A DNA stretch of 64,000 nt from a virus (taxonomy: Duplodnaviria; Heunggongvirae; Uroviricota; Caudoviricetes). Below are positions 5,320 through 63,477 of this stretch, piece after piece; positions within the stretch are counted from its first letter, which is position 1, and each line of letters opens with the position of its first letter. The notes beneath the pieces were generated by a model that was given only the letters and a program-made list of their open reading frames with translations, had not been told where the DNA came from and searched no databases. Made by a program: the position numbers and the translations under genes. The DNA is taken from IMG/VR virus record IMGVR_UViG_3300010883_000008, positions 2,668 to 66,667 of that record; one strand, 5' to 3'.

Positions 5320-5796
5320 CTACTGTTTCATATCCGAGATCTGCACGCCGGGCTTCCCCGATTTGGTTATGCGGGACGCTGAGATAGCCGCAGCGAGTGC
5401 TTTCTCTTCATCAGATCCACCCCCCGCGTCAACCAGCTTAAGTAAGGCATCCACTTTCGATCCCGATTCTTTGTATTCAATCGCAATCATGTGGCCTAGC
5501 AATTTGGTGTGGACCGACAACAACGCTCGAAGGGGATGTTCTTCGCCGGATTCCCGGGGGTAGCTTGCGTTCAGCTTCCGAACCAGTTTGATCATGTGCA
5601 TCTTCCCCGGCAGAGGGACGGTCCCTTTGGTTTTCGTGGACAGCACCAACTCGTTCATCAAGTTCACAAGGTCAGTCTCATCCTGAACAAGGTCGTTCAT
5701 TTGTTTCTTGGTCTTGACATAGGTTTTAGCCAAGCTGTCAACCAGAGCTTCTTGCGAAGTAAATTCTTCCTTAGTGACGGGGTTAACGTGGAGCAT
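5320..5796 (-). CDS. hypothetical protein
   Basis: 158-aa ORF. Confidence 0.45.
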   Translation of the reverse strand: MLHVNPVTKEEFTSQEALVDSLAKTYVKTKKQMNDLVQDETDLVNLMNELVLSTKTKGTVPLPGKMHMIKLVRKLNASYPRESGEEHPLRALLSVHTKLLGHMIAIEYKESGSKVDALLKLVDAGGGSDEEKALAAAISASRITKSGKPGVQISDMKQ

Positions 5797-6073
5797 TCTT
5801 ATTTTCCTCTTGAATAGTTCTCATTAGGTGAGCCGCAAACGACTTTTCGAGATCCCCCAAGGATTTCGCGTCTGAGGTCCAAACTTCTACGGTAGGGGAG
5901 TTTGGCCGAGTCTTATCATGTTCCCGAATCACGTGGAGTTTCTCCCCCTTCATGAACCGGTACATCTGGCCCGTCCGGCGATGCACGTCCTCGTTCATCG
6001 ATTTCACCGGAAATCCTAGATGGTCCTTTAACCATGCCACGAACATCGGTATCAAGCCTGCATCTAAGGTCAT
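5783..6073 (-). CDS. hypothetical protein (may be the 3' part of a frameshifted gene)
   Basis: 96-aa ORF overlapping ORF 5916-6284 by 158 nt in another frame. Its C-terminal part is protein-like. Confidence 0.35.
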   Translation of the reverse strand: MTLDAGLIPMFVAWLKDHLGFPVKSMNEDVHRRTGQMYRFMKGEKLHVIREHDKTRPNSPTVEVWTSDAKSLGDLEKSFAAHLMRTIQEENKNAPR

Positions 6074-6284
6074 CCAAGCGTTCCTTTAATATCACGGCGT
6101 CCAATTCTTCGCCGTTAGTTTCGCCACATAGGGCATTCTTTGCCAAGCGTACCAGTTCATAACTCAAGCTAGTACGAATCCCCGACTCCCGTTTTGCCGC
6201 GACAATTTCAAGCAAGTACTCAAGTACCCACTCGTCAGTCCGACGAAAGGTGATCTCCCGAGTTTGGTTCTTGCCCTTGGGCAC
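5916..6284 (-). CDS. hypothetical protein (N-terminal ~70 aa convincing, tail low-complexity)
   Basis: 122-aa ORF. Residues 1-70 (MPKGKNQTREITFRRTDEWVLEYLLEIVAAKRESG...) look genuine. The part overlapping ORF 5783-6073 turns Gly/Pro/Arg-rich. Confidence 0.35.
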   Translation of the reverse strand: MPKGKNQTREITFRRTDEWVLEYLLEIVAAKRESGIRTSLSYELVRLAKNALCGETNGEELDAVILKERLDDLRCRLDTDVRGMVKGPSRISGEIDERGRASPDGPDVPVHEGGETPRDSGT

Positions 6285-6444
6285 GGTGTCGCTCCAATCC
6301 GATTTTCAGTACTTCAACCGCAGCAGCACCTTGGGACAACGGAATGCCTTGGCGTTCCGCAATGTCCCGTAGTTGCTGGAGGGCATCGAAGATCCATAAA
6401 TCTTCCTTCGGCACCCAGATGGATAGTTTACGGCCTTTGATCAA
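6235..6444 (-). CDS. ribbon-helix-helix (CopG/Arc-like) DNA-binding protein, putative
   Basis: 69 aa. KLSIWVPKEDLWIFDALQQLRDIAERQGIPLSQGAAAVEVLKIGLE fits the RHH beta-strand, helix A, helix B pattern. It sits just upstream of the vWA/MoxR pair. Confidence 0.45.
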   Translation of the reverse strand: MIKGRKLSIWVPKEDLWIFDALQQLRDIAERQGIPLSQGAAAVEVLKIGLERHRAQGQEPNSGDHLSSD

Positions 6445-9263
6445 GATACACTCCGGATTACTTTCTGTAACAGTTTCCTCATGTCATTTACGAGTTGCCG
6501 TAAGTCGAGGAACTGTATGTAATGCTTGAACATGGACGACGATTTGAATCTCGTTATGGCTACCTGAACCACGTCCATTTCCTTTTCCAATTTCCGAACT
6601 TCGTCCCGAGTGGCACGGCGAGCAGTATCTCCACCATAGTCGTTGCCACAGGGGGCTCCGTCAGACAGCACCAGCATCAGACGATTCTCATTGTCGGTGT
6701 TCTCCTTGAACAGTCGACCGGCTTCCCGTATCGCCATGTGGTCATAGTTCTGACCACCGTCGCCGTACCCACCTATCGAGTAGACGTTCTTTTGTCGTTT
6801 GCCGTACAGGTACTTCATGTAGTTGTCGTCATGTCTGTTACACGAGGCATACGAGTAGATCTCAAGTTCGATCTTCGACACGTTAGCCAGAGCTTCGGCG
6901 AACAGGATAGCGATTTGCTTTGCCACCCCCGCTCGACCGTTCCAATCTTGGTAGGAACCCTTGCAGGTCCCCATCGATCCCGACTCATCCAAGAGCAGGC
7001 AGATTGCCAACCCTTTGGACGTGATCTTGGACGTGTTCTTGAACAGCCGTTTGGTGGAGCGGGCTCGTCCCAGTCGACGCCCGTCCAATCGACCCTCGAT
7101 CAGTTCTCGGTTGTCAACCAGTCTGTCCCCACGTCGGAAGGACAAGGCATTCTTGGTCCGGCCAATGAAGGGCTGTACCAATTTCTTCCCCGCCAAGTAG
7201 TCTCGTTTAGCGGACTCGTCCGGTCGTGGGTGAGATATGACAGTTCTTCGTCGAGTGTACTTGTCACACGGGCACGTTTCGGCCTCAACGAATTCCAGAC
7301 GTTCATCTTCGGCCTTAGCCAGTTCACAGGATTCCTCAAGATCCATCGTTCCCCCGTCAAAGGCTTCCATCATCCGAGCTAAGTCGATCAGCCCGAATCG
7401 TTCACCCTCACGGGATTTCTCCAAGGCGTCCGAGGCTTCCTTAAGGTCATCCAGCTTTTTCTCGTCCCGTTTGGCATCGGCCAACCGATCATCTTTCATG
7501 GCCTCCGTCAGATCGGAGAGATCCTTCAACTTTTCCAGGGCTTTCCGCATCCGTTCCCCCGTAGCTTCGATATCCTTTAGTAGAGCTTCCGTGTCGGTAT
7601 CGGTTTCCTTGGCGAGTCTGTGGTCATCCAGCCGCGTCAGGGTATCATCCATCTCGGCCTTCATCACATCGCCATCGTCCCGCCCGGCCAACTCCATCAG
7701 GAAGTCCCCGAAGTCTAGCTCGGGTTCGGGGAGTTCGGGTTCGCCTTCGCCTTCCGGCGTCGGGTGTTCCCCGCCCGTCGTTTCTTCCCCGCGTTCCGTT
7801 GTTTCTTCGTCAGACGTTTCGAGCGAGTCTTCTTTCGTTTCCCCGCTTCCGCCTGTAGTTGATGTTTCATCCGTTGGAAGTCCGTCACCCCCTGGCTCTC
7901 CGGGGCCACCCCCTCGTTCGGATCGACTGGGGTCGGAACCACCCCCGCCAGTTGCATCTGATCCTTCAGTTGATCTGCCGCTTCCGCCATCGTCAGAGGG
8001 TCCGGTGTCGACTCCATCGGTTTCTCCTTCTGGTGTCCCGGAGGAAGATCCACTGGGACCGTCCGGGGTACTTGATTTGCCATCGTCATCCCCGTCGCCT
8101 GCTCCGGGGTCATCGGAGGTTGGGGGCTCACCGGACCCATCGTCGCCAGCTTCGGGGGTTGACTCACTGTCCGACCCGTCTGAGTCCCCGTCACATTCAG
8201 CAGATCCACCTTCGGCGGATTCGTCGGAGGATTCGTCGGAGGTAGATTCTTCTCGTCCATCGTCAGGTTCCTTATCAGGTTCAGTGCAATCAGTTGCACT
8301 AGATTTTTCCTCGGCCCGTTTATCGGCCATTTCTTTTTTAACGTCCTCGATCATTTCGTCAACACGTTCATCGCCCAAGGCTTCACGCAACGCATCTTCA
8401 TCGTCCTTAGCAGCAAGTTTGTCGTAGATGTCCTGCATCCGGTTGAAGTACTCAACCAATCTGGCCCCCGCCATTTCCACGTCGTCCTCAGTCACCGGGG
8501 TGTGGGGTATGACACCCCGCAACTCGTCGAACGCACAGTCGCCTTTCACAGTCTTCCAAGTTTTCATCGCGGGGGATAAATGGTACGGGCACCGGATGGC
8601 TGTAAACATCAACGTGGTGAGTTTGTCTAGGTCCGTCAACTTGTCCCAGTTGGTCAACGATTCAAGGAATTTCTTGGCTTGGAAGATCACCCGTTTCGAC
8701 GCCTGTAGATACGGAGCATACCCCGGGCTGCGTTTACGGGCGAGGTTCTCGATGCGTTCGTCTTCAAGCAGGTTCTCCCACATGATCCGTTTGGGATCAG
8801 AGAGAGCTTTGGATTGCAGACGTAGGCCGAGCTTGCGAGTGGAGATTAGATGTTCCGTCTCATGGATACCTAACCCACAGTAGGCGTCCATCATTTCTTG
8901 ACCATCGGCCAAGTCATAGACGCTCGTGCCCAGGAAGATGAACGGTCCCTCCCATGGGTCCATTCTTTGCCATCCCGCCATGCCGGAAGCGGCTGTCCCG
9001 ATGGACGCCAGTTGGATGTTGGTCTTGGGGGGTGCCCCGTGGATCTTACAGATCGAAGCTACCGCATTGCGTATGCGGATAAGATCGAATACCTTTTGTT
9101 GAGCATCTTTGGCCTTGGTTCGGCCATAGCCCCACCCGCCTGAGGTCGAGGCGGATCGTAGAACTTCGTCCCGTTCAACTTCGGCGGCGGCGAGTTCCGA
9201 TATGAAGTCGTCTCCCTCAACCGTAAGTTCCAGGGGCTCGTATTCATGTGTCCAGTTTGGCAT
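6441..9263 (-). CDS. vWA-domain protein with N-terminal HExxH region and long acidic low-complexity linker (CobT-like / DUF2201-like MoxR partner)
   Basis: 940 aa. C-terminal von Willebrand A domain with MIDAS motif DESGS (LAICLLLDESGSMG). About 170 aa of D/E/S/G-rich sequence and a coiled coil. HETEH motif at about aa 150. Confidence 0.75.
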   Translation of the reverse strand: MPNWTHEYEPLELTVEGDDFISELAAAEVERDEVLRSASTSGGWGYGRTKAKDAQQKVFDLIRIRNAVASICKIHGAPPKTNIQLASIGTAASGMAGWQRMDPWEGPFIFLGTSVYDLADGQEMMDAYCGLGIHETEHLISTRKLGLRLQSKALSDPKRIMWENLLEDERIENLARKRSPGYAPYLQASKRVIFQAKKFLESLTNWDKLTDLDKLTTLMFTAIRCPYHLSPAMKTWKTVKGDCAFDELRGVIPHTPVTEDDVEMAGARLVEYFNRMQDIYDKLAAKDDEDALREALGDERVDEMIEDVKKEMADKRAEEKSSATDCTEPDKEPDDGREESTSDESSDESAEGGSAECDGDSDGSDSESTPEAGDDGSGEPPTSDDPGAGDGDDDGKSSTPDGPSGSSSGTPEGETDGVDTGPSDDGGSGRSTEGSDATGGGGSDPSRSERGGGPGEPGGDGLPTDETSTTGGSGETKEDSLETSDEETTERGEETTGGEHPTPEGEGEPELPEPELDFGDFLMELAGRDDGDVMKAEMDDTLTRLDDHRLAKETDTDTEALLKDIEATGERMRKALEKLKDLSDLTEAMKDDRLADAKRDEKKLDDLKEASDALEKSREGERFGLIDLARMMEAFDGGTMDLEESCELAKAEDERLEFVEAETCPCDKYTRRRTVISHPRPDESAKRDYLAGKKLVQPFIGRTKNALSFRRGDRLVDNRELIEGRLDGRRLGRARSTKRLFKNTSKITSKGLAICLLLDESGSMGTCKGSYQDWNGRAGVAKQIAILFAEALANVSKIELEIYSYASCNRHDDNYMKYLYGKRQKNVYSIGGYGDGGQNYDHMAIREAGRLFKENTDNENRLMLVLSDGAPCGNDYGGDTARRATRDEVRKLEKEMDVVQVAITRFKSSSMFKHYIQFLDLRQLVNDMRKLLQKVIRSVS
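8284..8299. repeat. palindrome family copy: GTGCAATCAGTTGCAC
   Basis: 16-bp inverted repeat inside the acidic region of the vWA gene. Confidence 0.85.
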
Positions 9264-9348
9264 AACACAGGTCTCCTAATTGGGGGTAGGTTCATTTCCA
9301 TACCCATACAATAACCGATATCCTCAGTCACCACAAGGGGTTACTCGA

Positions 9349-10932
9349 TTATCCAATGTCACCCTTCTGGATGATTTGGAGGACTTTCGTGCGATCCGAT
9401 TCTTCCCCACCCTCGTCCGAGAAGTGGCAGAGGATTGAACCCCTACAGGCTAAGTCGAACCGCATACCATCCGCGAGCTTGCGTCCCGTTGCCAACAGCA
9501 TTCTCGTAGATATGAACTCGGGGAATTCTTGGTCCCCGCGAGTCAGTTCCCGCTGTCGTACGGCGATCTTCACTAGTCGAACCGCGTCCACCCGTTTCAG
9601 ACCTTTGCATCGTCCCGTCAGGATGGTCACTTCGTTGGCCTCGGGTGGGAAGAACATCTCGATGATGGTGGAGAAGCGATCTTTCAACGCCTTATCCAAT
9701 GCTTCCGTTCCCGTGTACTCCATGCCGATGTTCGCCGTAGCGGTGATGGAAACTCCCTCACCCATGTTAACTATCGACGCGTCGTCATGCTCGTCCAAAG
9801 CGATGTACCGTTGGCTGTCCAACGCGGGCAGTAAGATATTGAATGCGGCTGGTACGGCACGGGTCAACTCATCCAACATGATGATGCTGTTCCCGAGATC
9901 CCCCCGGTAGGCTTGCACGAATCGGGCATCCGATACATACGTCCCCGCCTCATTCAGTCCTACGTTTCCGATCAGCGAGGTTCGAGGCTCACTCATGGCA
10001 CCGCAGTTGAAGGCCGCTAACTCACGTTCAACCGCACGTGATACAAAGTGTAGCACCTGTGATTTACCTGACCCCGAAGGTCCCACCAGAAGCAAGTTCT
10101 CCCCTGGTGTCAAGATGGTGTAGCAGATCTCTTCCCAATCGTCCTTGGACACGAAGAACTCCGAAGGATGGGGTCGACGTATCGTCTTGTAGAGCGGTGT
10201 CGGTCGATCAGCCGCAAGTTCCTCCATCCGGGCTTTGACCTCATCGGTGGCCGACTTGGCGATTTCCGCAGGTTCCCCGAAGCCCTCTACTGGGTCGACC
10301 GGATCGACCGGGCTGGTAGGGGTCGGTGGCAGGAATTCTTCGTCGGTCGTGTCCTCCGGGGCATCCCCCGGACGAACCGCACTCGCTCCAGCATCCCGAA
10401 CTTCGGGTGATGCCGATGCCTTCTTGAGTCGTAGGGACGCTTGGCATTCAGCATATATGCGAGCCGGATTGAATGGGCGTTCTTTGGCCTCCAGACATGA
10501 CGTGTCCGGGTCCTTGCCGTCCAATAGCCACAGCAGGTTATGTAAGGACACATCTCCGATCCGAGGGGACACAGCCCCTAGAGAGTTCTCACCCTTAGGC
10601 AAGTTCAGCACCACTGCGTAGGTGAGAGGGCTGGATGTTCGCCAGGGGATAACCCCATCTGAATCGATCTCGACGCCCCCGCCCTCGGTCCAAGTGTTCA
10701 GATCCGTTCGGACCACTCGCTCATGGTCGCACTTGGATTCAAACTTGTACATCGCACAGTCGCAAACTGTCGCGTCGGGCGTGATAGATACGTTGGTAAG
10801 CAGTCTGGCAGTATTGCTCACGATTTGGAATACCTCAAATTGGTTTTCGTCCACTTTGAAGCCAATTAAGATAGCCTTGTCCGCCATAACATGATCTCCT
10901 GAAATTGGGGGTTCGTTCGTTTCGTCCAACAA
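9349..10932 (-). CDS. MoxR-family AAA+ ATPase (CobS-like)
   Basis: 527 aa. Walker A LLLVGPSGSGKSQ and Walker B IIMLDELTR. It sits immediately downstream of the vWA partner, the usual MoxR/CobS genetic coupling. Confidence 0.75.
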   Translation of the reverse strand: MLDETNEPPISGDHVMADKAILIGFKVDENQFEVFQIVSNTARLLTNVSITPDATVCDCAMYKFESKCDHERVVRTDLNTWTEGGGVEIDSDGVIPWRTSSPLTYAVVLNLPKGENSLGAVSPRIGDVSLHNLLWLLDGKDPDTSCLEAKERPFNPARIYAECQASLRLKKASASPEVRDAGASAVRPGDAPEDTTDEEFLPPTPTSPVDPVDPVEGFGEPAEIAKSATDEVKARMEELAADRPTPLYKTIRRPHPSEFFVSKDDWEEICYTILTPGENLLLVGPSGSGKSQVLHFVSRAVERELAAFNCGAMSEPRTSLIGNVGLNEAGTYVSDARFVQAYRGDLGNSIIMLDELTRAVPAAFNILLPALDSQRYIALDEHDDASIVNMGEGVSITATANIGMEYTGTEALDKALKDRFSTIIEMFFPPEANEVTILTGRCKGLKRVDAVRLVKIAVRQRELTRGDQEFPEFISTRMLLATGRKLADGMRFDLACRGSILCHFSDEGGEESDRTKVLQIIQKGDIG

Positions 10933-10976: not shown

Positions 10977-11477
10977 CTACCCATTTTTCACGTCGTAGAA
11001 TAGCTCAACCATCATCTCCTTTTTGTCCATGAACGTCCGCGTAGCTGCGATCTTGTCGAAAGGTTTGGTCATCTTGTCCAGAATGGGCAGACTTATGCAT
11101 TGGATCGCAGTATCCGGAACCTCCGCTGCCACAAGTTCCCATGCCTTCGAGGACAGGGGTAAGGCATCTGCGGACGTGCGGACTAAGTCCTCCAGCATTC
11201 GCTTCATGTAGTCGGGGCCGACACCTCCGCCTTTCACCCAACTATAGTCCCCGTTGAGCATTTGCAAGTGCTTACACATTTTGGGAGAGTCCTTGGACTT
11301 CATCCACGCCATGCATGTACATTGGGACCCACCTGTGATCAGATACCGCTGTCGTTTGAATGCGGTCTTATCCGGGTCGGTCAGCTTCTCACAATGTATC
11401 CCAGCCGGAGCAGTCTGGAAGACGTAGATCGGAGGATTGAATACCTCGGTCAGTAGCTTCATGTAATGCGAGATCAT
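10977..11477 (-). CDS. SWIM zinc-finger protein, putative
   Basis: 166 aa. The CxCx(n)CxH motif is QCTCMAWMKSKDSPKMCKH. Confidence 0.45.
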   Translation of the reverse strand: MISHYMKLLTEVFNPPIYVFQTAPAGIHCEKLTDPDKTAFKRQRYLITGGSQCTCMAWMKSKDSPKMCKHLQMLNGDYSWVKGGGVGPDYMKRMLEDLVRTSADALPLSSKAWELVAAEVPDTAIQCISLPILDKMTKPFDKIAATRTFMDKKEMMVELFYDVKNG

Positions 11478-11560
11478 AGTCTGTGTCCATAGGTGTGATA
11501 ACTAAAACAGGGCCACTACCCCATGAGAGCAGCGACCCTGAACCAATCCCCCAAGGAAGG

Positions 11561-12568
11561 TTAACTCTCTGTGGTCGGGGCGACAACTACCGGGGTGACG
11601 ACTTCGGCTACCGGAGTAGGTTCAGGCGTTGGGGCAGCTTCGACGACGGGTTCCGGAGCAGCTTCTTCAACCGTTTCGCCCTTGGCCTCAGCATCCGCAG
11701 CTTTCATCTTGGTGTAGCGTTCCTCATCAATCGACTTGATTTCGAGTTTGACCCCGAAGGCCGCTTCCAAGTTTTTGACGCCAACTTCCAGTTTGCTCAA
11801 AGCCCCCGTAAGTCCCGACCCCGCCGAACTAGCCATGAAGTCCGCACAGATCAACTCCAGTGCGAAGTTGTCCTTATCGGACCCCGACATGGTCTTAGCC
11901 AACGTAACGGCCTCGTCCACGATGATGGCTTGGTCTTCGTGCAGGGCGAAGGCTCGTCGAACGATATCCGAAGGTTCCCCGTCGCTACCGGAGGCGAGAC
12001 CCTTCATTTCGCGAACCATTGCCTTGACTTCCGAAACCTTCATCGATTTCAGTTTGTCGAGGATCTCGACCCAGTTGTCTGCATCGATCACGTCTACGAC
12101 TTCTTTCGCCTTCGACCATTCCAGGCCCTTCAAGATGTCAGGGGACAGCCCCAACTCGACGCAGAACTTCTTGTAGATGTTGACCAAGTAGTACGCTTTG
12201 CGTTTCTTGAATCCGAGTTCGTGGAGAGCGTATTCCTCAAAGGATGCGTACTCGCGGGTGTCGTCACCGAATGTGCCGATGTAGGCTTTCCAGTAATCGT
12301 TGCTGTGGACTTCGTAGAGCATCTCGCCCTTGAGAACGTCCAAGCGATCCGGCATGTCGTTGGTCTTGAGCAGTACGTCACGTACCGCGTCTCGACGTTC
12401 CGGAAGGGGCATGTCTTTCGACATTTGAGGGAGACCTGAAAGGCCCCCAGCTAGGATGGTCATACCTTCACCACCGGTGACGATAAGAGCGGTAGTCTCA
12501 GGGGCGGCATCCGCCTCCGGAGGTGTGACAACTTCGGGTGGAGTGATTGTTGCAGCGGCGTCTGTCAT
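11561..12568 (-). CDS. hypothetical protein with acidic TPE-rich termini
   Basis: 335 aa, protein-like with conserved-looking core YALHELGFKKRKAYYLVNIYKKF. The overlapping 318-aa plus-strand ORF is Arg/Phe-rich antisense. AAGGAGA Shine-Dalgarno sequence upstream. Confidence 0.5.
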   Translation of the reverse strand: MTDAAATITPPEVVTPPEADAAPETTALIVTGGEGMTILAGGLSGLPQMSKDMPLPERRDAVRDVLLKTNDMPDRLDVLKGEMLYEVHSNDYWKAYIGTFGDDTREYASFEEYALHELGFKKRKAYYLVNIYKKFCVELGLSPDILKGLEWSKAKEVVDVIDADNWVEILDKLKSMKVSEVKAMVREMKGLASGSDGEPSDIVRRAFALHEDQAIIVDEAVTLAKTMSGSDKDNFALELICADFMASSAGSGLTGALSKLEVGVKNLEAAFGVKLEIKSIDEERYTKMKAADAEAKGETVEEAAPEPVVEAAPTPEPTPVAEVVTPVVVAPTTES

Positions 12569-12609: not shown

Positions 12610-12638
12610 AGTATAGACCACCGCTGATAGTGTGTCAA
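12610..12638 (-). promoter_or_regulatory. sigma70-like promoter (TTGACA-17-TATACT) reading into gene 11561-12568
   Basis: The minus strand reads TTGACA (12633-12638), a 17-nt spacer, then TATACT (12610-12615). It lies in a 76-nt intergenic gap. Confidence 0.4.
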
Positions 12639-31670: not shown

Positions 31671-32318
31671 CTATTCAGCTTCCGTGATGACATCTGCAAT
31701 ATCAGTCATGTGTAACAGACTCAACCCAGTTGCAAAATCGGCTAAGGACAACCGTATGACCTTGATGCCGAAATGTCTCAGTTCCTCGCGTAATTGGGTA
31801 CTCAGATCTTCCCGACACTTTTTAGAATCGGCCAGTAGTTCACTGTAGTTATTATCGCAGATTACTTTGGAGATAGCAACTAGTGCAAAATCGTGCGAAG
31901 TGTCGTCATAGTCGTGGGTCTCGCATAAAAGTGCCCTTACGTCATGGATCTCATAGATCAGGACTCCCCGAAGGTGGAGCGGTTTATTGTCTCGGGTCGT
32001 GAGTTTCTGCTTAGGCAGATAGGTGGTCTGTCGCTTGATGGGGACGATTGTGGGAACATGGGTCACTAAGGGCCAGTACCAATGGATGCCTGTCAGCCTC
32101 CACCAGTTATCCCACCTACTCCAAAGAACGGGACGGAAAAGACCTTGAAGAAACATCCATCTAGGCCACCACATCCCGTTTGTATGGGTGAGTACTTTCA
32201 CATCCGCACCCCGAGTCCATTTGACCCCGGCTTGCGTAGAGTTAACTACCTCGAAATGAGGCAGAAACAAGACTATAAATTCAAATAGCCTTGTCAAGAC
32301 TGGAAACAATTCACCCAT
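31671..32318 (-). CDS. SPFH/band-7 (stomatin/HflK-like) domain membrane protein, putative
   Basis: 215 aa. N-terminal hydrophobic segment. GVKWTRG...GIHWYWPLV...TTRDNKPLHLRGVLIYEIHD...REDLSTQLREELRHFGIKVIRLSLADF follows the SPFH pattern. Confidence 0.45.
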   Translation of the reverse strand: MGELFPVLTRLFEFIVLFLPHFEVVNSTQAGVKWTRGADVKVLTHTNGMWWPRWMFLQGLFRPVLWSRWDNWWRLTGIHWYWPLVTHVPTIVPIKRQTTYLPKQKLTTRDNKPLHLRGVLIYEIHDVRALLCETHDYDDTSHDFALVAISKVICDNNYSELLADSKKCREDLSTQLREELRHFGIKVIRLSLADFATGLSLLHMTDIADVITEAE

Positions 32319-34255
32319 TATCCCACCTTAGTTTTAGTTAACTTGATCTCCGTCAATTGGGCAGTTATGTCAAATACTGGCATCAGAGCTACAGTGTTAC
32401 TCACCTCATCTGGAGTGAAAGTTAAAGGACTAATTCCTGACGCGTGTACGCCCGAATCTCGAATCTCTAAGTTCACATCCCCGTTAAGGTAGACGTTCTC
32501 AATCTCGATGGTGTAAGTATCCCCTATAGTTAGAGATAACTCTTGTGTGGCCTCAGTACTACCAAGCAAGGTCAATCCGTCCCCGGGGTTAGCCCTAGAA
32601 CCTAACGGGATCGTCCAAGGGACCGACTCAGTGGATTTAGGTACAGGATCTCGCAAGAGATTCGTAGGCGACGTGAACGTAGTCGAACCTATGTCCTCCA
32701 TCGAGTGAACGATTAGAGACATCTTAGCTTTTGGCCCCGGACTATAGTTGACTTTGATGTCCGTCAGCAGACCTGTGATCACGTCACCCTCAGGAGTGGT
32801 AAATGTAATCTTCTGACCCACATCCAAGCAAGTTACATAAGCACTCTCAACATCCCAGGCCTTACGGGCCATTTTCCATTCCTGAAAAGCTCGCACAGCA
32901 ACGTTGTAGGCAATCTCCCGATCAGGGATGTAAGTGTTCTCAATCTCCTCAGGAAGTATGCCCATCTCCGCTTGTAGATCCGGGTCATTAACGATAACCG
33001 CAAGTTGGTATTCAACCTTCTCCATTGCCGAAGCCGAAGGTGAACCTCCACCTTTACCGCCGCCACCTTGGCCCCCCGGACCACCTCCGGCATGCCCGGC
33101 CCCTCGACCGACACCCGCACCCATCTGACGCATGACAGCTTTGATCTGTTCAACGTCCTCTTTACCATGGGCGGCTTGGTGTTTCTCACCCAAGTTGTGG
33201 GCGTTCGCCAACTCAGGGTCTTGGGGGTTATCCAGAGCTTTGGCCGATACAGTTACTTCGTAGTCACCCTTCTGATAATGTGCCGAGTCATCATTGGGGT
33301 CGCCGTTAGTCATCCTTACCCCAGTCTCCCCCGAATTACCGTACATCAGTTCTTCGGTGTAGTCGGCGGGACCTGCATACTCACCGGCCCCTGTGATAAC
33401 AACGTCCAAGGCGTTCACCCTATCGTCGTTGATCTCCTTAAGCAGAATAGCGATCACCTTACGAGGTAAAGCATTGCCGATACAATGCTTCATTTTGGCC
33501 TTCTTCCCCTTCTTCTTAGTGTTCTTGGGGTTACTTTGACCACCTTGGGATTGTTGCTCTTTCTTCCCCCCAAGTTTGTCCTTCCATTCCCAGCAGCCCC
33601 GGACTTGGTATCGAGTAGGGCCTGATTGAATATCACGCTTCCGATTAGCAGACAGGACCGCCTCAGGGGGAAGAACCACGTCCACAGCAGAGTTATGGTC
33701 CTTCCAATCCTGAGTAACTAGGATACCGTTGCGATTGATGAAGAGATCCTGGCAAGCCGCCTGGGCAATCTTCATCATTTCTTGCATCATGTTCGTGCCG
33801 TTAGCGGGACCACATACTGTCTTAGTTGTGGGGGCAAACGCAGTCAAAGCCGGACTCAAGCCCCCCATCTCATGAGCAATGAGTTCCAGGGCATCCTTAG
33901 CGTTAGCCAAAGGCCCAGTAATGACAGGCTTCTTAGCTAGTCGAGACGCATACGAGTTGATGGAGAGTTGGACTTCATCATTCGAGAGTTCATCCTTCTC
34001 ATTGAAGTTCACAACCAGTCCGAAGACCCAACTGATCACCCCGTTAAAGCAGGACTCCACAATACCTTGGGATTCAAGGACCGAAGCGTCCAACTTGACC
34101 TGAAAAGGTTGCCACAAGAAGTTCTCGGGTTCCCACAGCCCATCCTCATTGGTGAGAACTACCGAAGCACTGTAGGACGACCGCATTGAAACGGTGACGT
34201 TCCAACTTACTAAGTTGTTAACCAGAGTCGAGGGGTAGGGTCCGTTACTAGCCAT
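32318..34255 (-). CDS. large Gly-rich protein, probable virion/structural component
   Basis: 645 aa. Gly run GAGHAGGGPGGQGGGGKGGG and Lys patch KNTKKKGKKAKMKH. No enzymatic motif recognised. Confidence 0.45.
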   Translation of the reverse strand: MASNGPYPSTLVNNLVSWNVTVSMRSSYSASVVLTNEDGLWEPENFLWQPFQVKLDASVLESQGIVESCFNGVISWVFGLVVNFNEKDELSNDEVQLSINSYASRLAKKPVITGPLANAKDALELIAHEMGGLSPALTAFAPTTKTVCGPANGTNMMQEMMKIAQAACQDLFINRNGILVTQDWKDHNSAVDVVLPPEAVLSANRKRDIQSGPTRYQVRGCWEWKDKLGGKKEQQSQGGQSNPKNTKKKGKKAKMKHCIGNALPRKVIAILLKEINDDRVNALDVVITGAGEYAGPADYTEELMYGNSGETGVRMTNGDPNDDSAHYQKGDYEVTVSAKALDNPQDPELANAHNLGEKHQAAHGKEDVEQIKAVMRQMGAGVGRGAGHAGGGPGGQGGGGKGGGSPSASAMEKVEYQLAVIVNDPDLQAEMGILPEEIENTYIPDREIAYNVAVRAFQEWKMARKAWDVESAYVTCLDVGQKITFTTPEGDVITGLLTDIKVNYSPGPKAKMSLIVHSMEDIGSTTFTSPTNLLRDPVPKSTESVPWTIPLGSRANPGDGLTLLGSTEATQELSLTIGDTYTIEIENVYLNGDVNLEIRDSGVHASGISPLTFTPDEVSNTVALMPVFDITAQLTEIKLTKTKVG

Positions 34256-36026
34256 CAGTATCTAATATCCCTTGAGGTATGTGTGAGGCGTCATGGCCTA
34301 GCTGCCAAACTTCGTGCAGCATCCCGCCATGTATTCGCTCTCGTATCAGTTCTTCAAGGTCATGCCTTCGAGTATGGGTCTGATTCACCAAAGTGGTGAA
34401 GTCTTCCGCAGATTGTACTGGGATGTTCCAATCGCCTGAGGGCTCGTTCCACAACAAGATCCACTTGTACTCCCCGAGACGAGCTTGAAATTCATCTACG
34501 AAAGATTGCCCCGTACCCGCAGCATCCGCCTCAGCATAGATCAAGTCTCGGACCCCAGTTAGAATCAGTATATCAGCTTTGGGCCAAGTATCAAGCAAGT
34601 CTTGTTCCCGTAGGTTCAATTTTGCGAGCATCCCCGCCTTTTCGATAGCTTTGGCGTTGGGTTCCAGCCCCGTGATGTCTAACCCATGTTCCGAGCAAGC
34701 CTTAACGAGTTCCCCCGAGAAGCTCCCCACCTCAAGGATTTTAGGGTCATCCTCCAATCGTTTCAACACCTCAGGAAGGATCTCCATGGATGCCTTAAAG
34801 TGCATCGCAGGTTTGTACCCCCATCGGGACTCTAGCCAACAGGTCTCCGGAGGATTAGCCGCACAGATTTCAGTGACCGCTTTCTCCCACAGATCCATAA
34901 CAGGGTCAATACTGAAAGTATCCGTCACGTGACGTTGAGCCTTTTCCGTAGCAGTCTTGATCCGTTCAGGGTCCTCAAAGAACCACTGGGTTGTGGCGAC
35001 CATCTGATTCACATCCGGCACCTGCCAAAGCGTTCCCAAACGTTCTTCTTTGAACGCAGGGTTGATTAGCATTGGACAATGCTCCGAGCCCATTAGCTCA
35101 GGCATCGTTGTGGTGTTGTTGAGAATCTGGAGTACTCCCAAGGCCGCAGCCTCAATCGTAGGCACCCCGAATCCTTCACCTTGTGAGGTAGTCAGACGAA
35201 CATCCGACATCTGCATCAGTTCCCCGACCTCCTCGTGTTCCAGTCCCCGACTCCAGTCGAATCCCGTAAAGGTCACATCTTCCCGAACGTCGTACATACG
35301 AGCTACTTTGGACAAATCGTACCCGTCCTGCCCACTGGGACCCTTTTGATGCATTATGGTGTGTGCAATCAAATGCACATCCTTATCCGGCCATGCTTTC
35401 TTTAATTGCCGGATGTAGTCGAAGGTCGCGTCCCACCGCTTGTGCCAAATGTTCCTGTCGCAGTTCAAGACTAAAAAGGTGTCGTCATGCAGAGGAACGT
35501 GGAGCTTCTTAGCCCATTTCCGCCGCAGGGCGTGCTTATCCACTTCAACATTGAGCTTGAACTTCTCAGGGTCCAGCATGTGAGGAATGACCCAATCCGA
35601 AGGGGCCTGTTTCTCCCACATAGTTTGAGCATATTCCGACAGATGAATTACCCGGTCTTTAGGCACCTCCAGAAAATAATCTCGACCATTCCAGGGGAGT
35701 TCGCTACCTTCCCACGGAAGCCAGAACAGTACAGGGATGTTTCTGGGGGCAAACTTTAGAGCCGACATGTCCAGGCATTGTTGAGTGTGATAGAAGACTA
35801 TGACACAGTCCGGTCGAATCTTCTCCAACTCACGGTCAATTACCGCGACCTTATCTAGTTCACGTATATGCCAACAGACAAGGTCATCTTCCTCGAAGGT
35901 GGGGGGGTTATTCGCCAGGATATAAACTTGATGGCCCCGGTCTCGGAATCCCCGAGCCAGCATACCCATCTGCATACCAAATCCTGAGGGTAAGTTAGGA
36001 CTTTCCCCGATCAGCACGATTCTCAT
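34248..36026 (-). CDS. bifunctional glycosyltransferase (GT4-like) plus class I SAM methyltransferase
   Basis: 592 aa. GT-B signature TSQGEGFGVPTIEAAALGV. C-terminal MTase motif I ILEVGSFSGELVKACSEHGLDITGLE. Confidence 0.65.
   Translation of the reverse strand: MRIVLIGESPNLPSGFGMQMGMLARGFRDRGHQVYILANNPPTFEEDDLVCWHIRELDKVAVIDRELEKIRPDCVIVFYHTQQCLDMSALKFAPRNIPVLFWLPWEGSELPWNGRDYFLEVPKDRVIHLSEYAQTMWEKQAPSDWVIPHMLDPEKFKLNVEVDKHALRRKWAKKLHVPLHDDTFLVLNCDRNIWHKRWDATFDYIRQLKKAWPDKDVHLIAHTIMHQKGPSGQDGYDLSKVARMYDVREDVTFTGFDWSRGLEHEEVGELMQMSDVRLTTSQGEGFGVPTIEAAALGVLQILNNTTTMPELMGSEHCPMLINPAFKEERLGTLWQVPDVNQMVATTQWFFEDPERIKTATEKAQRHVTDTFSIDPVMDLWEKAVTEICAANPPETCWLESRWGYKPAMHFKASMEILPEVLKRLEDDPKILEVGSFSGELVKACSEHGLDITGLEPNAKAIEKAGMLAKLNLREQDLLDTWPKADILILTGVRDLIYAEADAAGTGQSFVDEFQARLGEYKWILLWNEPSGDWNIPVQSAEDFTTLVNQTHTRRHDLEELIRERIHGGMLHEVWQLGHDASHIPQGILDTDG
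35363..35378. repeat. degenerate palindrome family copy: GTGCAATCAAATGCAC
   Basis: One half site is altered (ATGCAC). It lies inside the GT-MT gene. Confidence 0.5.
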
Positions 36027-39126: not shown

Positions 39127-39552
39127 CTAAGGGAGGGCTATGAACCCCTCCTCGGGTTCCACATCCTGCCAAAGGCCCATCCATCGGGCGTGTTCTTTTT
39201 GGCCTCTAGGTTTCCCCAGTCTAGCCTGTAGTCGTTTCAAGTACAGATCAGTTAGTTCTAGCCCTCCAAAACGTTTTACCTGACGATCCCAAGGGCCTAT
39301 CCAAAAGTCCCGGTCTGATCTGCGGAGGTTCAAGTAGTCTATGACCACCGTCTCTTGTCCCGAGTCAAACAGGCACTCCACAAACAGTCGAGCAGTTGCC
39401 AACACCATAGGCTCCGCCGTAGGTATCTTACCCGCAGTATTCGTCAGCCTTTTCCGTAGGCTATCCATGCAGACAACCACGTGCCCTGAATTTCGGGACC
39501 ACGTGGTCTTGCCTGTATGAGGGTATCCCATCGTGAGGATCAGCTTAAGCAT
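39127..39552 (-). CDS. P-loop kinase (polynucleotide/nucleotide kinase-like)
   Basis: 141 aa. Walker A MGYPHTGKTTW and Walker B VVIDYLN. Confidence 0.5.
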   Translation of the reverse strand: MLKLILTMGYPHTGKTTWSRNSGHVVVCMDSLRKRLTNTAGKIPTAEPMVLATARLFVECLFDSGQETVVIDYLNLRRSDRDFWIGPWDRQVKRFGGLELTDLYLKRLQARLGKPRGQKEHARWMGLWQDVEPEEGFIALP

Positions 39553-42482
39553 TAGGGAGGGGTAGGTCCTCCTGCGACGTTGCAGACTACCGTACCGATG
39601 GGGTCTGATCCGTTAACGCCTTGCCAGTTGGATGCGTTGTCCGGGGACACTATCCCATAAGGCATTTCATCCGACTCATAGAGGACAGTACTGTTTTCCA
39701 AGATCTGCCATCTGATCCCCGTGAGGACCACTGTAAAGGTGGGGTCGTCATCTCCAGTATATATGCCTCCAGATTCTACGTATTCTTGACTAGTCCCCGA
39801 TTCCCCGAAGCTACCAACAAAGATGGTGGCACATAAGGCTTCTGCGGCTTGAGCAACTGCATAGCAGTCTACGTTACAAGCACACGGGCCTAAGTCTACT
39901 TCCGCATCCCAAGTGGTTGCGGCACCCGCAGTAATAGAGATCAAATCTCCGCAGGCATTTTTACCTACCGTCATGGTCTGCCCGGCTAAAGTGATCGTTA
40001 GACCGCAATAGTCCATAGCAGCGGTGAGTCCGGTGACTGCGAAGAAGCTAGTGTTGCTGTCCTCAACCATATCGGTAGCCAACCCACAGGGGCCTTGTGT
40101 GGTCAACCCGCACCCAGCTAAGTCCCCCGGAGCTACAGCCAATCCGCAAGCTCCGTCAGTCGTTAAACCGCAGCCTGCCAGAGCCGTGTTATCCACATGC
40201 AAAGTGTCCCCTACGGCAATCAAACCACATCCGGGCTCCGGAGTGATGTTGTATATCACCTGTAGCCCAATGTTCTGAGTGATGTAATTGCTCGTCGTGT
40301 AGCACGTGATATGCTGATGATAGTGCTGGTGCTGATGAATGTGACTATGCCCATGGTAATGCTCATGAGTGTGGTAGTGAGCATGGCTATGAGAATAGTT
40401 CTGAGTGAGATCTACGTTCGTAGTGTAATTCAGGTTCGTAGTACTGTAACAAGTCTTATGGTAATGAGCATGAAAGTGGTTGCTGATTTCCTGCGTCGTG
40501 TTGTAGTTAGTTGTTGAACTCGTATAGCAAGTAATGTGCTGGTGGTAATGCTGGTGGTTGTGCGTGTGGTTATTTACATGGTAATGGCTGTGCGTGTGGT
40601 AATGAGCGTGATGATGCTCATACGACAGGTTGATGTCGATGTTATTAGTGACGTAACTTGTACCGGTTACGTAGCAGTGCAGCTTACATCCATCCCCGAC
40701 TAAATTCATCCCCGCCAAGTCTGAGGCATTGACCGAGATTGAATCTCCCGAGTACAGACCACAGCCTACGCTAACGGATAGCTTACACCCGTAGTCTGAG
40801 ACAAGTCCGTCCCCCGCCAAGTCTTCCCCGACGACAGAGACATCGGCACCCACGTAAATACCACAGCCTCCGACTACATCCAAAGTGCAATCATACCCCG
40901 CCGTAAGTCCCTCGCCCGCGAGTGCCGCGTTATCAACCTCAAGAGCCCCGCCGTAGGTCTTAAGGCCACAACCTGTATTGATGTACAACTGACACCCGTC
41001 GTAACCTCCCCCCACCGAGAGCCCGTCACCGGCTAAGGCTTGACCGTCAACTCCGATAGTGCAATCCCCGCTGACTTTCAGCCCACAACCTGCCAGCGTG
41101 TAGGCATCCACTTCAAGCTGGTTGCCATACAGTTGAAGACCACAGCCAAAGTCTACGTAAAGGCCGCACTGATCCGACCGTAATCCGGGTCCCGCAAGAG
41201 CCTTGGTATCAATGTTGAGTTCCCCACCTTCACAGGTTAGGCAGTCTCCATAGTTGATATACTGACAATCCCAGGGGATAGGTAGAGGAATTCTCGCTTC
41301 AAATCCCACCCGAGTAACCGTCTCACCTATCTTCATCGAGGGCATAGTTAAATTAGTAGAACACTTATCTTCCGTCAATTCGGCCTCAGATTTACGGGTG
41401 AATCCAAAGGACTGGTTCTTTTGAGATTGACTAACCGTCTTGACCTTAATGACCGGCCCAAATGCGAAGAACTTGTCCCCGTAAGACGAGATCCCCGTCC
41501 CACTAGCAAAGGTGCCCCTCCAGGCGTCTTCCACCGTCATGAAGTCCGATTGATCAAGAACTTCGGTACGAGCGTAAGGGATCGAAGTTTGCGTACTGTC
41601 AGACTTAACGTATCCCCAAGGTTTGTACTGAGCATGTCCGAAATCACAGTCGACTTCGACTTCCTTTTCTTTACAACACGTAAAGAATTCGCCGGACTCA
41701 ATGTGGAAAAACGTCAGACACAGGCATACTGTGAAGTCCTGACTGAAATTACAGTTTGTGGATACCCCAATGGCTTTCTTAGTAGCGTCAAAGGGTTTCA
41801 TCTTGACAGTAGGTTTTAACTGAAATACGTCGTCTTCTGGGTTTTGTTTTAGTTTCCATTCAACCTTGAACAACGCCACTACAGGTACATCGTCTTCCGT
41901 CTTACATTTCCACGACCACAACCCCGCAAAGAGCGAAGTCTCACAGCATAGCATCGTGTCAGGACCATTGATCTTTATGGCAACGTCAAACTCGTCGCAC
42001 ATGTTGTGGAGTTGAATGACTTTCGCGGGGTCGGCTTGTCCCGATTTGCCACCCTTACCCGTCTGTTTTTTAGGGCACTTGTATTTGACCGTTCGAGCCT
42101 CAGACGCATCCGAGACACACCCCGCCTCGTCGTAAGCCATTACTCGCCAATGGAGATCATCCCCGTTCTCGATGTCATCGATGATCTTCATCTCATAGGA
42201 AGTAGCCGTAGTGATTACGGCCTTAAGAGTAGGTCCTTGAAACGATGAATTTCGAGACCACTGCAAGACATACTTAGTAGCTCCCGACACCGCATCCCAA
42301 GAGAGCGTGATCCCTGAGCCACCCCCATCGGCTACCGCGTAGTTATTCGGGCAATGTTCTGACTCGTGTTCCGGGTAGTCAAGGATGGGGGTCTCAAGCG
42401 TACAGTCACGCATCCAATCCACTGCGGGTTGCAGTGGAAAAGTGTAGATATCTTGGACGAGGAAATCGGTAGTGTTATACAT
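39552..42482 (-). CDS. tail fibre / receptor-binding protein with FN3-like, Cys-Gly repeat and His/Tyr-rich repeat regions
   Basis: 976 aa. FN3-like SWDAVSGATKYVLQWSRNS. Repeated LAGxGL..GCGL units. Three tandem His-rich units (HAHYHTHSHYHVNNHTHNHQHYHQHITCYT). Confidence 0.6.
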   Translation of the reverse strand: MYNTTDFLVQDIYTFPLQPAVDWMRDCTLETPILDYPEHESEHCPNNYAVADGGGSGITLSWDAVSGATKYVLQWSRNSSFQGPTLKAVITTATSYEMKIIDDIENGDDLHWRVMAYDEAGCVSDASEARTVKYKCPKKQTGKGGKSGQADPAKVIQLHNMCDEFDVAIKINGPDTMLCCETSLFAGLWSWKCKTEDDVPVVALFKVEWKLKQNPEDDVFQLKPTVKMKPFDATKKAIGVSTNCNFSQDFTVCLCLTFFHIESGEFFTCCKEKEVEVDCDFGHAQYKPWGYVKSDSTQTSIPYARTEVLDQSDFMTVEDAWRGTFASGTGISSYGDKFFAFGPVIKVKTVSQSQKNQSFGFTRKSEAELTEDKCSTNLTMPSMKIGETVTRVGFEARIPLPIPWDCQYINYGDCLTCEGGELNIDTKALAGPGLRSDQCGLYVDFGCGLQLYGNQLEVDAYTLAGCGLKVSGDCTIGVDGQALAGDGLSVGGGYDGCQLYINTGCGLKTYGGALEVDNAALAGEGLTAGYDCTLDVVGGCGIYVGADVSVVGEDLAGDGLVSDYGCKLSVSVGCGLYSGDSISVNASDLAGMNLVGDGCKLHCYVTGTSYVTNNIDINLSYEHHHAHYHTHSHYHVNNHTHNHQHYHQHITCYTSSTTNYNTTQEISNHFHAHYHKTCYSTTNLNYTTNVDLTQNYSHSHAHYHTHEHYHGHSHIHQHQHYHQHITCYTTSNYITQNIGLQVIYNITPEPGCGLIAVGDTLHVDNTALAGCGLTTDGACGLAVAPGDLAGCGLTTQGPCGLATDMVEDSNTSFFAVTGLTAAMDYCGLTITLAGQTMTVGKNACGDLISITAGAATTWDAEVDLGPCACNVDCYAVAQAAEALCATIFVGSFGESGTSQEYVESGGIYTGDDDPTFTVVLTGIRWQILENSTVLYESDEMPYGIVSPDNASNWQGVNGSDPIGTVVCNVAGGPTPP
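40270..40700. repeat. tandem coding repeats (about 3 units) encoding His/Tyr-rich HxHxH segments
   Basis: Repetitive DNA with units such as atggtaatg / gtgctggtg. Composition is visibly AT-richer than the surrounding gene. Confidence 0.6.
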
Positions 42483-62109: not shown

Positions 62110-63477
62110 TTAGCTCCGCTTTTTGTATAGATTTGCTGACCCAATAACCGGATCAGCATTCTCCACCAACCAGCGATGAAGGTTTCTGTGGGCACCAATC
62201 AGTATAACGTAGTTTCCGAAACCTGCATCATACTTCTTTGCCGCCAAATCTGCAAACTCTTTGAGAGTGAACTGTTCCGGCAACTCGGCGACCACCGCCG
62301 TAAACTTGTCGTCCCATTCTCGGAACGGAGTCCACGAACCTGCGATGTCCTCATTCATTATAGCGAGATACCCCGCTGCTGCAACTCCAATGTCGTGTTC
62401 CTCCACGAACTCAGCAACGATGGGAGCTACCATCTTACGAGCCTCGTCGTAATTCTCGAAACAATACTTGAGCAGGGCAAGCAATTCCGACTGACTGGAG
62501 TAGAAAAACGGGTAGTCTTTCCCCACCAGAGCATATGCCCAACTTAAGTTAGGTAGGAGTAGCGGGTTGCCCGTACAGAACTGCTCGGAAAGACCAAACG
62601 AAAAGCCCTCATCCTCGGACATGGAAACAGACACATGACACTGATTCATCAGCTTCAAGTAGTCCATATACGGGAGAGGTTCAAGGTATTGAACCTTCTC
62701 GAATTTATCCAAGTCCCGACGAGTCGCCGAACTGTTGGGATAGACGGACTTGATTTCCACGTCCAGCCCCATCCGGAAAATATCCTCGTAGGCCCCCAAA
62801 ACTTCCTTCCACCGTTTATTCGAGTTGAATCTCGCAGCAAAAAGCATCGTGAATTTGTCAAACTTGGAAACTTCCGGGTCCAGTGCAATCGATTGCACAA
62901 GTTCACAAGGGACTCCCTGGGACCGGATAAGTCCCGTATCCATTATGGACTGGGTGGAAGACGCCGACAAATACCGTCGAGCTTCCGTAATGGCAAACCC
63001 TTTTTCCCGAGCCGTGGGGAAGAACGTTCGACACTCTGACCATGAGACCGCACGTAGCTTAGTCTCCACCGAATTGTCGTTGGAGATAGGTGTCTGCACC
63101 CAGTACTCAGCGATAAACACGGGTATGTTAAGGGCTTCCGACATCTTGAACATGCGTTTGATGTTCGCCGCAATCACGTTCTTGGACGTGATAACCGCGT
63201 CTACTTGATACTTCCCATTGACCGGATTAAACAGAGCGTATAGCTCCGAACCAATGTACCCTTGAGCAGCCGAATAGGGATGCCAATGATCAAGGTAGAT
63301 ATACCTCACATTCGGGAGCTTACAATCGTCAGGGATTTCCGCATCTTTATTGATGGGGATAAAGCAGGTTATCTCGGGCCATTGCCGAGCGAACTGCATC
63401 CATGTCACAAAGTCGGACTCCCGCCATACGGTCTTGCGGGTAGATATCAGGGGTAGAATCAGCAGCTTAGTGATCAT
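62110..63477 (-). CDS. glycosyltransferase (GT-B fold, GT4-like), putative
   Basis: 455 aa. MSEDEGFSFGLSEQFCTGNPLL resembles the GT-B signature. It contains the palindrome copy at 62880-62901. Confidence 0.5.
   Translation of the reverse strand: MITKLLILPLISTRKTVWRESDFVTWMQFARQWPEITCFIPINKDAEIPDDCKLPNVRYIYLDHWHPYSAAQGYIGSELYALFNPVNGKYQVDAVITSKNVIAANIKRMFKMSEALNIPVFIAEYWVQTPISNDNSVETKLRAVSWSECRTFFPTAREKGFAITEARRYLSASSTQSIMDTGLIRSQGVPCELVQSIALDPEVSKFDKFTMLFAARFNSNKRWKEVLGAYEDIFRMGLDVEIKSVYPNSSATRRDLDKFEKVQYLEPLPYMDYLKLMNQCHVSVSMSEDEGFSFGLSEQFCTGNPLLLPNLSWAYALVGKDYPFFYSSQSELLALLKYCFENYDEARKMVAPIVAEFVEEHDIGVAAAGYLAIMNEDIAGSWTPFREWDDKFTAVVAELPEQFTLKEFADLAAKKYDAGFGNYVILIGAHRNLHRWLVENADPVIGSANLYKKRS
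62880..62901. repeat. palindrome family copy, 22-mer: CCAGTGCAATCGATTGCACAAG
   Basis: Identical 22-mer to the copy at 56111-56132. Confidence 0.9.

Follow-up and report, generated by a model that had tools for sequence, protein, structure and literature searches.

What does a pair of genes resembling those for the cobaltochelatase subunits CobS and CobT do in a tailed phage? The question is posed by a 64,000-nucleotide stretch of phage DNA (positions 2,668 to 66,667 of IMG/VR record IMGVR_UViG_3300010883_000008), here called the window and numbered from its first letter, in which a gene for an AAA+ ATPase is followed by one for a 940-residue partner, hereafter the adaptor. An earlier note, made from the sequence alone, had placed three open reading frames (ORFs) of interest between positions 6235 and 10932. 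All three are present, on the minus strand, and the description of the two larger ones as a CobS/CobT-like pair agrees with our results: the adaptor has the three-part build of CobT and NorD and shares its N-terminal domain with phage proteins annotated 'CobT', and the pair lies outside the CobS and CobT equivalogs. That the cassette encodes an ATPase of MoxR type and, with it, an adaptor resembling CobT and NorD, as in other viral CobST-like pairs, is a conclusion in which we have high confidence. By analogy with characterized relatives, we also consider it rather probable that the two proteins constitute a phage AAA+ remodelling machine, likely with an active zincin; more tentatively, it would act on a DNA-associated protein complex of the host or the phage and not on a corrin ring.

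A MoxR-type ATPase and its three-part adaptor

The ATPase gene occupies positions 9349-10887 of the minus strand, the strand that holds all genes of the cassette and the other large homologue-supported ORFs of the window. Its product is most likely 512 residues long, starting from the ATG at 10887, rather than the 527 residues given in the earlier note, which begin at a TTG at 10932; an AGGAG lies 8 nucleotides (nt) upstream of the ATG, and a public gene call likewise gives 512 residues. The Walker motifs named in that note are intact. In the 512-residue numbering, Walker A (GPSGSGKS, 269), Walker B (IIMLDE, 335), sensor 1 (TAN, 384), the arginine of a DRF motif (403) and sensor 2 (STR, 460) can all be placed, and the key residues of the Walker motifs, both sensors and the arginine finger are invariant in 23 full-length homologues. 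Matches to Pfam (AAA_5, 59.1 bits against a cut-off of 22, E = 6e-16; the CbbQ_C lid, 31.7 bits against 20.6, 2e-7; bpMoxR, 34 bits against 27, 2e-8), to PHROG (phrog_249, 'porphyrin biosynthesis', 7e-23) and, for the family profile, to profiles of PDB structures (CbbQ 2e-25, NorQ 1.6e-21, CobS 8.5e-13) place the protein, at the level of sequence, within the MoxR-like CbbQ/NorQ/GvpN/CobS group. The features are far from anything chance would give, homologues being found at E-values down to 1e-193.

Two further features of this ATPase should be noted. Firstly, the match to bpMoxR recalls the ternary MoxR-vWA-beta-propeller conflict system. The ATPase domain matches, but the cassette does not belong to that system, and neither a Pfam scan nor synteny revealed a beta-propeller or VMAP protein in it. 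A defence-system reading was considered more generally and rejected, PADLOC returning only a weak P-loop match to IetA. Secondly, the N-terminal domain (residues 1-171, encoded at 10375-10887, minus strand) carries a SWIM-type CxCxnCxH signature, here CDCx8CDH encoded at 10723-10764, which is invariant. The earlier note mentioned neither this domain nor the two partner genes upstream of the ATPase. No SWIM N-domain occurs in the Mel-JY01 ATPase or in four ATPases of isolated phages that are paired with a CobT-like partner.

The adaptor gene (6441-9263, minus strand) starts 85 nt downstream of the ATPase gene, and the adjacency of the two is preserved in nearly all related loci fetched. The protein comprises a zincin-fold N-domain, an acidic disordered linker, a charged helical region, a finger motif and a VWA domain. 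[quoted passage not shown] To D759, S761 and S763 of that motif (residues 759-763, encoded at 6975-6989) alignment with CobT adds N839 and D868; the five residues correspond to CobT D422, S424, S426, N518 and D546, and all are invariant in the family alignment A1. The full-length family profile matched the VWA domain of NorD at 4e-7 and CobT at 5e-3 among PDB structures. Matches of the window adaptor to Pfam CobT_C, VWA and VWA_2 fell just below their cut-offs (19.1 bits against 21 for CobT_C), and all but one of ten adaptor relatives scanned had C-terminal CobT_C or VWA matches, six of the ten passing the CobT_C cut-off.

Between 25 and 36 residues before the MIDAS lies the candidate finger or shaft motif EGRLDGRRLGRA (encoded at 7062-7097, minus strand), in which alignment A1 shows no variation at G724 or L726. 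It aligns with CobT EEGYLDSARLVR, within the region that the CobT paper calls the shaft, and it resembles the NorD fingertip motif GRxL[L/I]xxxxT (PMC13036017); the EGRLD..RL segment and the five MIDAS positions line up together in profile alignments with NorD and CobT. By analogy, EGRLDGRRLGRA may be the finger that enters the ATPase pore. The acidic linker to its N-terminal side (residues 313-532, encoded at 7668-8327, minus strand) is defined by composition. Its core, residues 331-520, consists to 89% of D/E/S/G/T/P, with 32% D+E and 4% K+R, and bears out the roughly 170 residues of acidic low complexity reported earlier. Among homologues the linker varies in length and aligns poorly.

The remaining part, the N-domain (residues 1-286, encoded at 8406-9263, minus strand), contains the HETEH motif to which the earlier note had drawn attention as metallopeptidase-like. 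The motif lies at residues 134-138 (8850-8864), and EDERIE is encoded at 8748-8765. Consistent with that suggestion, the domain is confidently modelled as a zincin fold. Comparison of the model with the PDB by Foldseek gave weak zincin matches only, the best at E = 0.06, with CobT and NorD not among them, and sequence profiles of the domain produced no significant match in the PDB. Pfam offered little further guidance. No Pfam domain was found at the N-terminus in the ten relatives, and the first 700 residues of the adaptor gave only a sub-threshold and probably spurious match to Dynactin_p22 (residues 551-610).

An exact-sequence look-up of the 940-residue adaptor found no record, and a word-based protein search with the full sequence returned only six matches, probably because low-complexity words crowded the candidates. 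An exhaustive profile search with the first 286 residues, at a cut-off of E <= 1e-3, was more productive and defined a family of 786 cluster representatives, most of them 600-850 residues long. In the 159 of these that were inspected, HExxH, EDERIE about 30 residues later and DxSGSM nearly always occur together. Since a complete HExxH...E site is thus kept across the listed family members, we infer that the N-domain binds zinc and probably cleaves a target, beyond any role in docking.

Kinship with CobST, NorQD and CbbQO

Pairs of this kind have been described in viruses before. Clusters with viral cobST are widespread, the cobT of cyanophages is often annotated as a peptidase, and a hijacking of host CobN has been proposed (Liu; PMC8651126). 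In T4-like jumbo phages, a MoxR ATPase is paired with a metallopeptidase-vWA protein, for which a role in virion assembly with proteolytic processing has been put forward (Iyer; PMC7824862). The cassette holds a pair of this CobST-like kind, already known from viruses (Liu 2021; Iyer 2021), because phage proteins annotated 'CobT' share the N-domain of its adaptor. That domain and its HExxH motif are common to gp69 of Gordonia phage DalanDe, the 'CobT' of Rhizobium phage RHph_X66, the 'porphyrin biosynthetic protein' gp049 of Salmonella phage SSU5 and gp77 of Bacteroides phage BS162P1. For example, HELAH and EDQRIE of DalanDe gp69 align with the window adaptor (25% identity over 162 residues), and RHph_X66 CobT and SSU5 gp049 were matched by the N-domain profile.

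The pairs of DalanDe, SSU5, RHph_X66 and the jumbo phages have the same adjacent AAA_5 ATPase and large partner, the partner again running from an HExxH N-domain, which the same profile recognizes, through a linker to a VWA domain that contains DxSGSM, and they often lie beside replication genes. They differ from the window pair in sequence, the identity just given for DalanDe gp69 being low, and in further respects. The partner gene comes first in SSU5 (gp050/gp049) and RHph_X66, whereas the ATPase gene comes first in the window; the acidic linker of the window adaptor is unusually long; and the window's clade adds a set of features that are new to it, namely the SWIM domain of the ATPase, an upstream SWIM protein, an upstream DUF3102-like protein whose core is fused to the ATPase elsewhere, and two downstream genes resembling ribbon-helix-helix (RHH) genes.

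Structural work on cellular relatives provides the nearest points of comparison. In CobT, an M48C-like N-domain is joined by about 90 disordered residues to a variant VWA domain, and a shaft in front of the latter enters the CobS ring; the N-domain contacts the small subdomain of CobS, CobN binding on the opposite side (bioRxiv 10.64898/2026.07.21.739949). The parts of NorD are an N-terminal domain, a linker that is essential and not resolved in the structure, a finger lodged in the pore of NorQ and a contact at the C-terminus; a mechanism of twisting and stretching has been proposed for NorQD, the same logic being seen in CbbQO (PMC13036017). With CobS-CobT (PDB 9uka and related entries) the window pair shares the M48-like or zincin N-domain, the acidic disordered linker, the shaft-preceded VWA domain, the D-x-S-x-S/N/D MIDAS and an ATPase of the same AAA+ clade; the N-domains of the two adaptors, however, are without detectable sequence similarity, and the window ATPase is longer by an N-domain of about 250 residues. 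Of the solved structures, NorQ-NorD, which inserts FeB into nitric oxide reductase, and the Rubisco activase CbbQ-CbbO match best in sequence, the likeness extending to the CbbQ_C lid and to the order of N-terminal domain, long linker, finger and VWA domain in NorD. In contrast to these systems, the window pair has no nor or cbb genes nearby, the N-domain of its adaptor is a zincin in which the metal site is intact, and it occurs in a phage beside SWIM and DUF3102-like accessories.

The earlier note had also suggested profile comparison with CobS/CobT, NorQ/NorD and DUF2201. The ATPase gave the CbbQ/NorQ/CobS matches and the adaptor the NorD/CobT matches described above, while neither DUF2201 nor DUF2201_N was matched by the adaptor (E <= 0.1) or by its ten relatives (E <= 0.01). 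As far as sequence can tell, the pair is closer to CbbQ/NorQ with NorD than to CobS with CobT.

This bears directly on whether the cassette encodes a genuine cobaltochelatase pair, CobS and CobT, of auxiliary metabolic function, which would hijack host CobN and so raise the supply of cobalamin, for example for B12-dependent nucleotide metabolism. Such a role, the stated hypothesis of PMC8651126, would accord with an architecture equal to that of CobT (bioRxiv 10.64898/2026.07.21.739949), with the N at the fourth MIDAS position as in CobT, with the adaptor relatives that pass the CobT_C cut-off and with the phrog_249 match, and the neighbouring genes of nucleotide and DNA metabolism are compatible with a role in B12 supply. 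Against it, the ATPase scored 17 bits on the CobS equivalog TIGR01650 and fails its cut-off of 558.55, the adaptor had no match to the CobT equivalog TIGR01651, and neither the adaptor nor any of its ten relatives had a reported match to PF06213, the Pfam family of the CobT N-terminus. The ATPase profile is much nearer to CbbQ and NorQ than to CobS, and the VWA domain nearer to NorD than to CobT. The only CobN-sized genes in the window are those of tail proteins, and no B12-dependent enzyme was found among the ORFs scanned. Chromosomal copies of the pair in Pirellulales are not adjacent to cob genes, and neither the family-wide HExxH...E site nor the SWIM and fused DUF3102-like domains have an obvious role in cobalt insertion. 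On balance, we regard a chelatase function as unlikely.

Accessory genes and gene neighbourhood

Further genes accompany the pair. The 335-residue protein encoded at 11561-12568 (minus strand) has a DUF3102-like core; it matched phrog_17202 at 2e-24 and is syntenic in about 12 related phages. DUF3102 itself matched the family weakly, in two of the 15 members aligned and with a lowest E-value of 7e-5; a PDB search with the DUF3102-like profile gave no significant match. The family profile also matched six ATPase homologues without the SWIM motif, in each case at the N-terminus, at E-values from 2e-41 to 6e-11 (P0047, 2e-41; P0053; P0064; P0059; P0057; and Pirellulales L012, 6e-11). This gene fusion in other lineages, together with the synteny, ties the 335-residue protein to the ATPase. 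Just 5' of its gene is a near-consensus sigma-70-like promoter (TTGACA, 17 nt, TATACT; 11 of 12 positions; 12610-12638, minus strand), and just 3' of its stop, before the next gene, a 15-bp hairpin with a T-run (11508-11540, minus strand). Both are consensus matches only, the regional counts of which are near shuffled expectation.

Directly upstream of the ATPase gene, at 10977-11477 (minus strand), a 166-residue protein is encoded that contains CxCx12CxH, a motif of SWIM type. All 11 sequences keep the CxC...CxH, and the gene takes the same position in related phages; the protein had no Pfam match, and its comparison with the ATPase N-domain by hhalign was weak (probability 55%, E = 1e-4). 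A leader of the form CCCCCAATT..AGGAGA..TGTTATG, common to the ATPase and adaptor genes (10903-10911 and 9278-9286, minus strand), was considered as a repeated signal and dismissed as not significant, the window containing three copies of CCCCCAATT against 0.86 expected and five of 100 shuffles reaching three.

The RHH gene of the earlier note, a 69-residue ORF at 6235-6444 (minus strand), lies downstream of the adaptor gene and not directly upstream of the pair, its TTG start overlapping the adaptor's TGA stop (TTGA). It is followed by a second RHH-like gene, a 122-residue ORF with a conserved core of about 70 residues (5916-6284, minus strand), which overlaps the first by 50 nt. The 69-residue gene is kept in six related loci and the 122-residue gene in most. 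Their RHH fold is putative. The strand-helix-Gly-helix pattern and a nearly invariant Gly recur in 16 aligned units, and the two units align in register, but no Pfam, NCBIfam or PDB profile matched. In the window (5916-6444, minus strand) and at loci L022 and L025 each unit has a gene of its own; the two genes overlap by 50-83 nt, and in every case the second is in the +1 frame. Elsewhere the units are fused in one ORF of 144-155 residues, a single-chain double RHH (L003, 12505-12939; L021, 10016-10450; L028, 9186-9653). A programmed +1 frameshift joining the separate genes was considered; it is not required, as each downstream gene has its own start just after the in-frame stop. In RHph_X66, a CopG-family RHH gene lies about 1.6 kb upstream of the pair on the opposite strand.

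The genome to which the window belongs is that of a tailed phage and is about 99 kb long, public copies of the ATPase and adaptor being found on a 99,426-bp metagenomic contig. The phage has no close isolate, with no nucleotide-level relatives among 50,697 phage records. The window encodes a terminase large subunit, portal and tape measure proteins, and the cassette lies at the end of a replication and recombination module, with genes for a Toprim primase, a family A DNA polymerase (PolA), a helicase, a UvsX-like recombinase and RusA nearby. In order of transcription, RusA (14376-13888) is followed by ORFs of 218 and 186 residues, the 335- and 166-residue proteins, the ATPase, the adaptor and the 69- and 122-residue RHH-like proteins. 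Within or beside the structural block there are also glycosyltransferase-like genes (34248-36026, minus strand, phrog_2170, 3e-25; 62110-63477, minus strand, phrog_30253, 4e-20), and a 976-residue protein adjoining the tape measure gene (39552-42482, minus strand) and a 645-residue protein (32318-34255, minus strand) had no PHROG match at E <= 1e-5.

The order RusA, 335-residue protein, 166-residue protein, ATPase, adaptor and RHH-like genes is kept in about 12 related phage contigs of up to about 105 kb, several of them of about 95-105 kb, and in more distant phages the ATPase and adaptor alone are retained. There, too, replication genes recur. In BS162P1, the pair is annotated as two hypothetical proteins and adjoins the DNA polymerase gene; in DalanDe, gp68 and gp69, annotated as AAA-ATPase and 'CobT-like cobalamin biosynthesis protein', lie near DnaB; and in RHph_X66 (L043) and SSU5 (L044) the pair is immediately upstream of the gene for the Pol III alpha subunit, with RepC or DNA ligase also near. 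With locus L040, where a DnaB-like helicase is near the pair, polymerase or helicase genes are thus found beside or near it in four unrelated isolated phages and one further locus. A universal link to replication genes, which had been expected, is ruled out by the mixed neighbours at distant loci. At two of these (L031 and L032) glycosyltransferases flank the pair. In a third distant phage (L033, IMG/VR contig 3300009158_002556) a gene at 5364-6542, about 700 nt downstream of the pair, matches the Druantia DruA family at 6.5e-22.

These neighbourhoods allow the assembly role to be weighed, in which the pair would be a chaperone and processing protease of virion assembly or maturation, analogous to the MoxR-vWA system needed for tail development in the Acidianus two-tailed virus. 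Jumbo phages for which this role was proposed have the same domain architecture (PMC7824862), the pair is widespread in tailed phages, and an intact zincin site would suit a processing protease. Yet the cassette stands at the far end of the replication and recombination module, about 13 kb from the nearest assignable structural gene of the window, the pair adjoins polymerase or helicase genes in several unrelated phages, its accessories are SWIM, DUF3102-like and RHH-like rather than structural proteins, and copies in the chromosomes of Pirellulales metagenome-assembled genomes (MAGs) have no phage genes nearby. A function in assembly therefore strikes us as improbable.

A scan of species-representative genomes extended the distribution of the pair to cells, in MAGs of Pirellulales and Bacteroidales. 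Chromosomal pairs lie at 5918-9824 of L012 (Pirellulales MAG contig CAZYKP010000004.1) and at 6849-9923 of L010; the L012 ATPase carries a DUF3102-like domain in place of SWIM, and that of L010 is without an N-terminal extension. The neighbours of the Pirellulales copies include genes for a Ser/Thr kinase, a DUF1559 protein, a cytochrome c/PA14 protein and an RTX protein, and phage genes, cob genes and CobN were not visible around them. The presence of these copies among cellular genes suggests that the pair is a self-contained module which moves between hosts and phages, and it faintly hints at a planctomycete as the host of the phage.

The same copies bear on a third possibility, that the machine serves host takeover or counter-defence, its MIDAS capturing a specific protein of the host, for example a factor of defence or of the nucleoid, which the ATPase would unfold and the zincin cut. 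The position among early or middle genes, the intact protease-like site and the variable neighbours in distant phages, including the DruA-like protein of L033, are in keeping with this, and the acidic linker could conceivably mimic nucleic acid. Set against these points, no known defence or anti-defence model was matched beyond the weak P-loop, nothing identifies a host target, and the cellular copies in Pirellulales argue for a function of housekeeping type borrowed by phages. We accordingly give host takeover a low probability.

A proposed remodelling machine in place of a chelatase

As the order of parts in the adaptor matches that of CobT and NorD, a similar mode of operation can be envisaged for the remodelling machine that we favour. 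The ATPase would form a hexameric ring, by homology to NorQD and CobST, the pore of which would be entered by the finger segment just before the VWA domain, while the ATPase's small subdomain, the lid, would be the docking site of the N-domain. An acidic residue of the target protein would be gripped by the MIDAS, and hydrolysis of ATP would twist and stretch the acidic linker, so that the target is remodelled and, probably, cut by the zincin of the N-domain. That the job of the pair is the remodelling or proteolysis of a DNA-linked target, and not cobalt insertion, is a tentative proposal, which has the chelatase, assembly and host-takeover readings as live rivals.

Several considerations weigh against this proposal. 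The N-domain of canonical CobT is also M48-like, and a zincin fold by itself therefore leaves room for a chelatase. The absence of CobN refers to 64 kb of a phage of about 99 kb. The SWIM, DUF3102-like and RHH assignments were made from motifs or from weak profile matches, and the association with replication genes, assessed by inspection, is recurrent and not universal, glycosyltransferases, a DruA-like protein and MutS standing beside the pair at distant loci. Finally, the literature searched contained no experiment on a viral member and no test of either published proposal (PMC8651126, PMC7824862), in agreement with the earlier note, which had called the role of such pairs in phages unresolved.

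An analogy from outside the MoxR-like group is offered by the minimal zincin proteases SprT/Spartan and Wss1, the latter acting with Cdc48/p97, which attack substrates bound to DNA and resemble the window pair in combining with an AAA+ partner and in a gene neighbourhood of DNA metabolism. The likeness of the zincins is the generic one of minimal zincins, at 7-16% identity, and the window adaptor bears no SprT or WLM signature, so that the comparison is one of analogy and implies no membership. A bolder reading of the family as a whole is that viral 'CobS/CobT' pairs have nothing to do with cobalamin and are zinc-dependent, ATP-driven remodelling proteases acting on DNA-bound protein complexes in phage replication, recruited by SWIM and DUF3102-like modules that recognize DNA or protein, as a prokaryotic and viral counterpart of Cdc48/p97-Wss1/Spartan, and that canonical CobT and NorD are their protease-dead descendants. 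We offer this whole reading as a long shot.

Among tailed phages and archaeal viruses, pairs resembling cobS and cobT are widespread; they are routinely counted as auxiliary metabolic genes of cobalamin synthesis. The near-invariant motifs of the zinc site, a likeness of the pair to CobST no greater than that to NorQD or CbbQO, the recurrence of replication genes in its neighbourhood, and the DUF3102-like fusion and SWIM fingers point instead to a remodelling or protease role tied to DNA transactions. For this phage machine, the newly solved mechanisms of CobST and NorQD provide a concrete template. If such a role is the true one, many 'porphyrin/cobalamin biosynthesis' annotations in viromes would be wrong.

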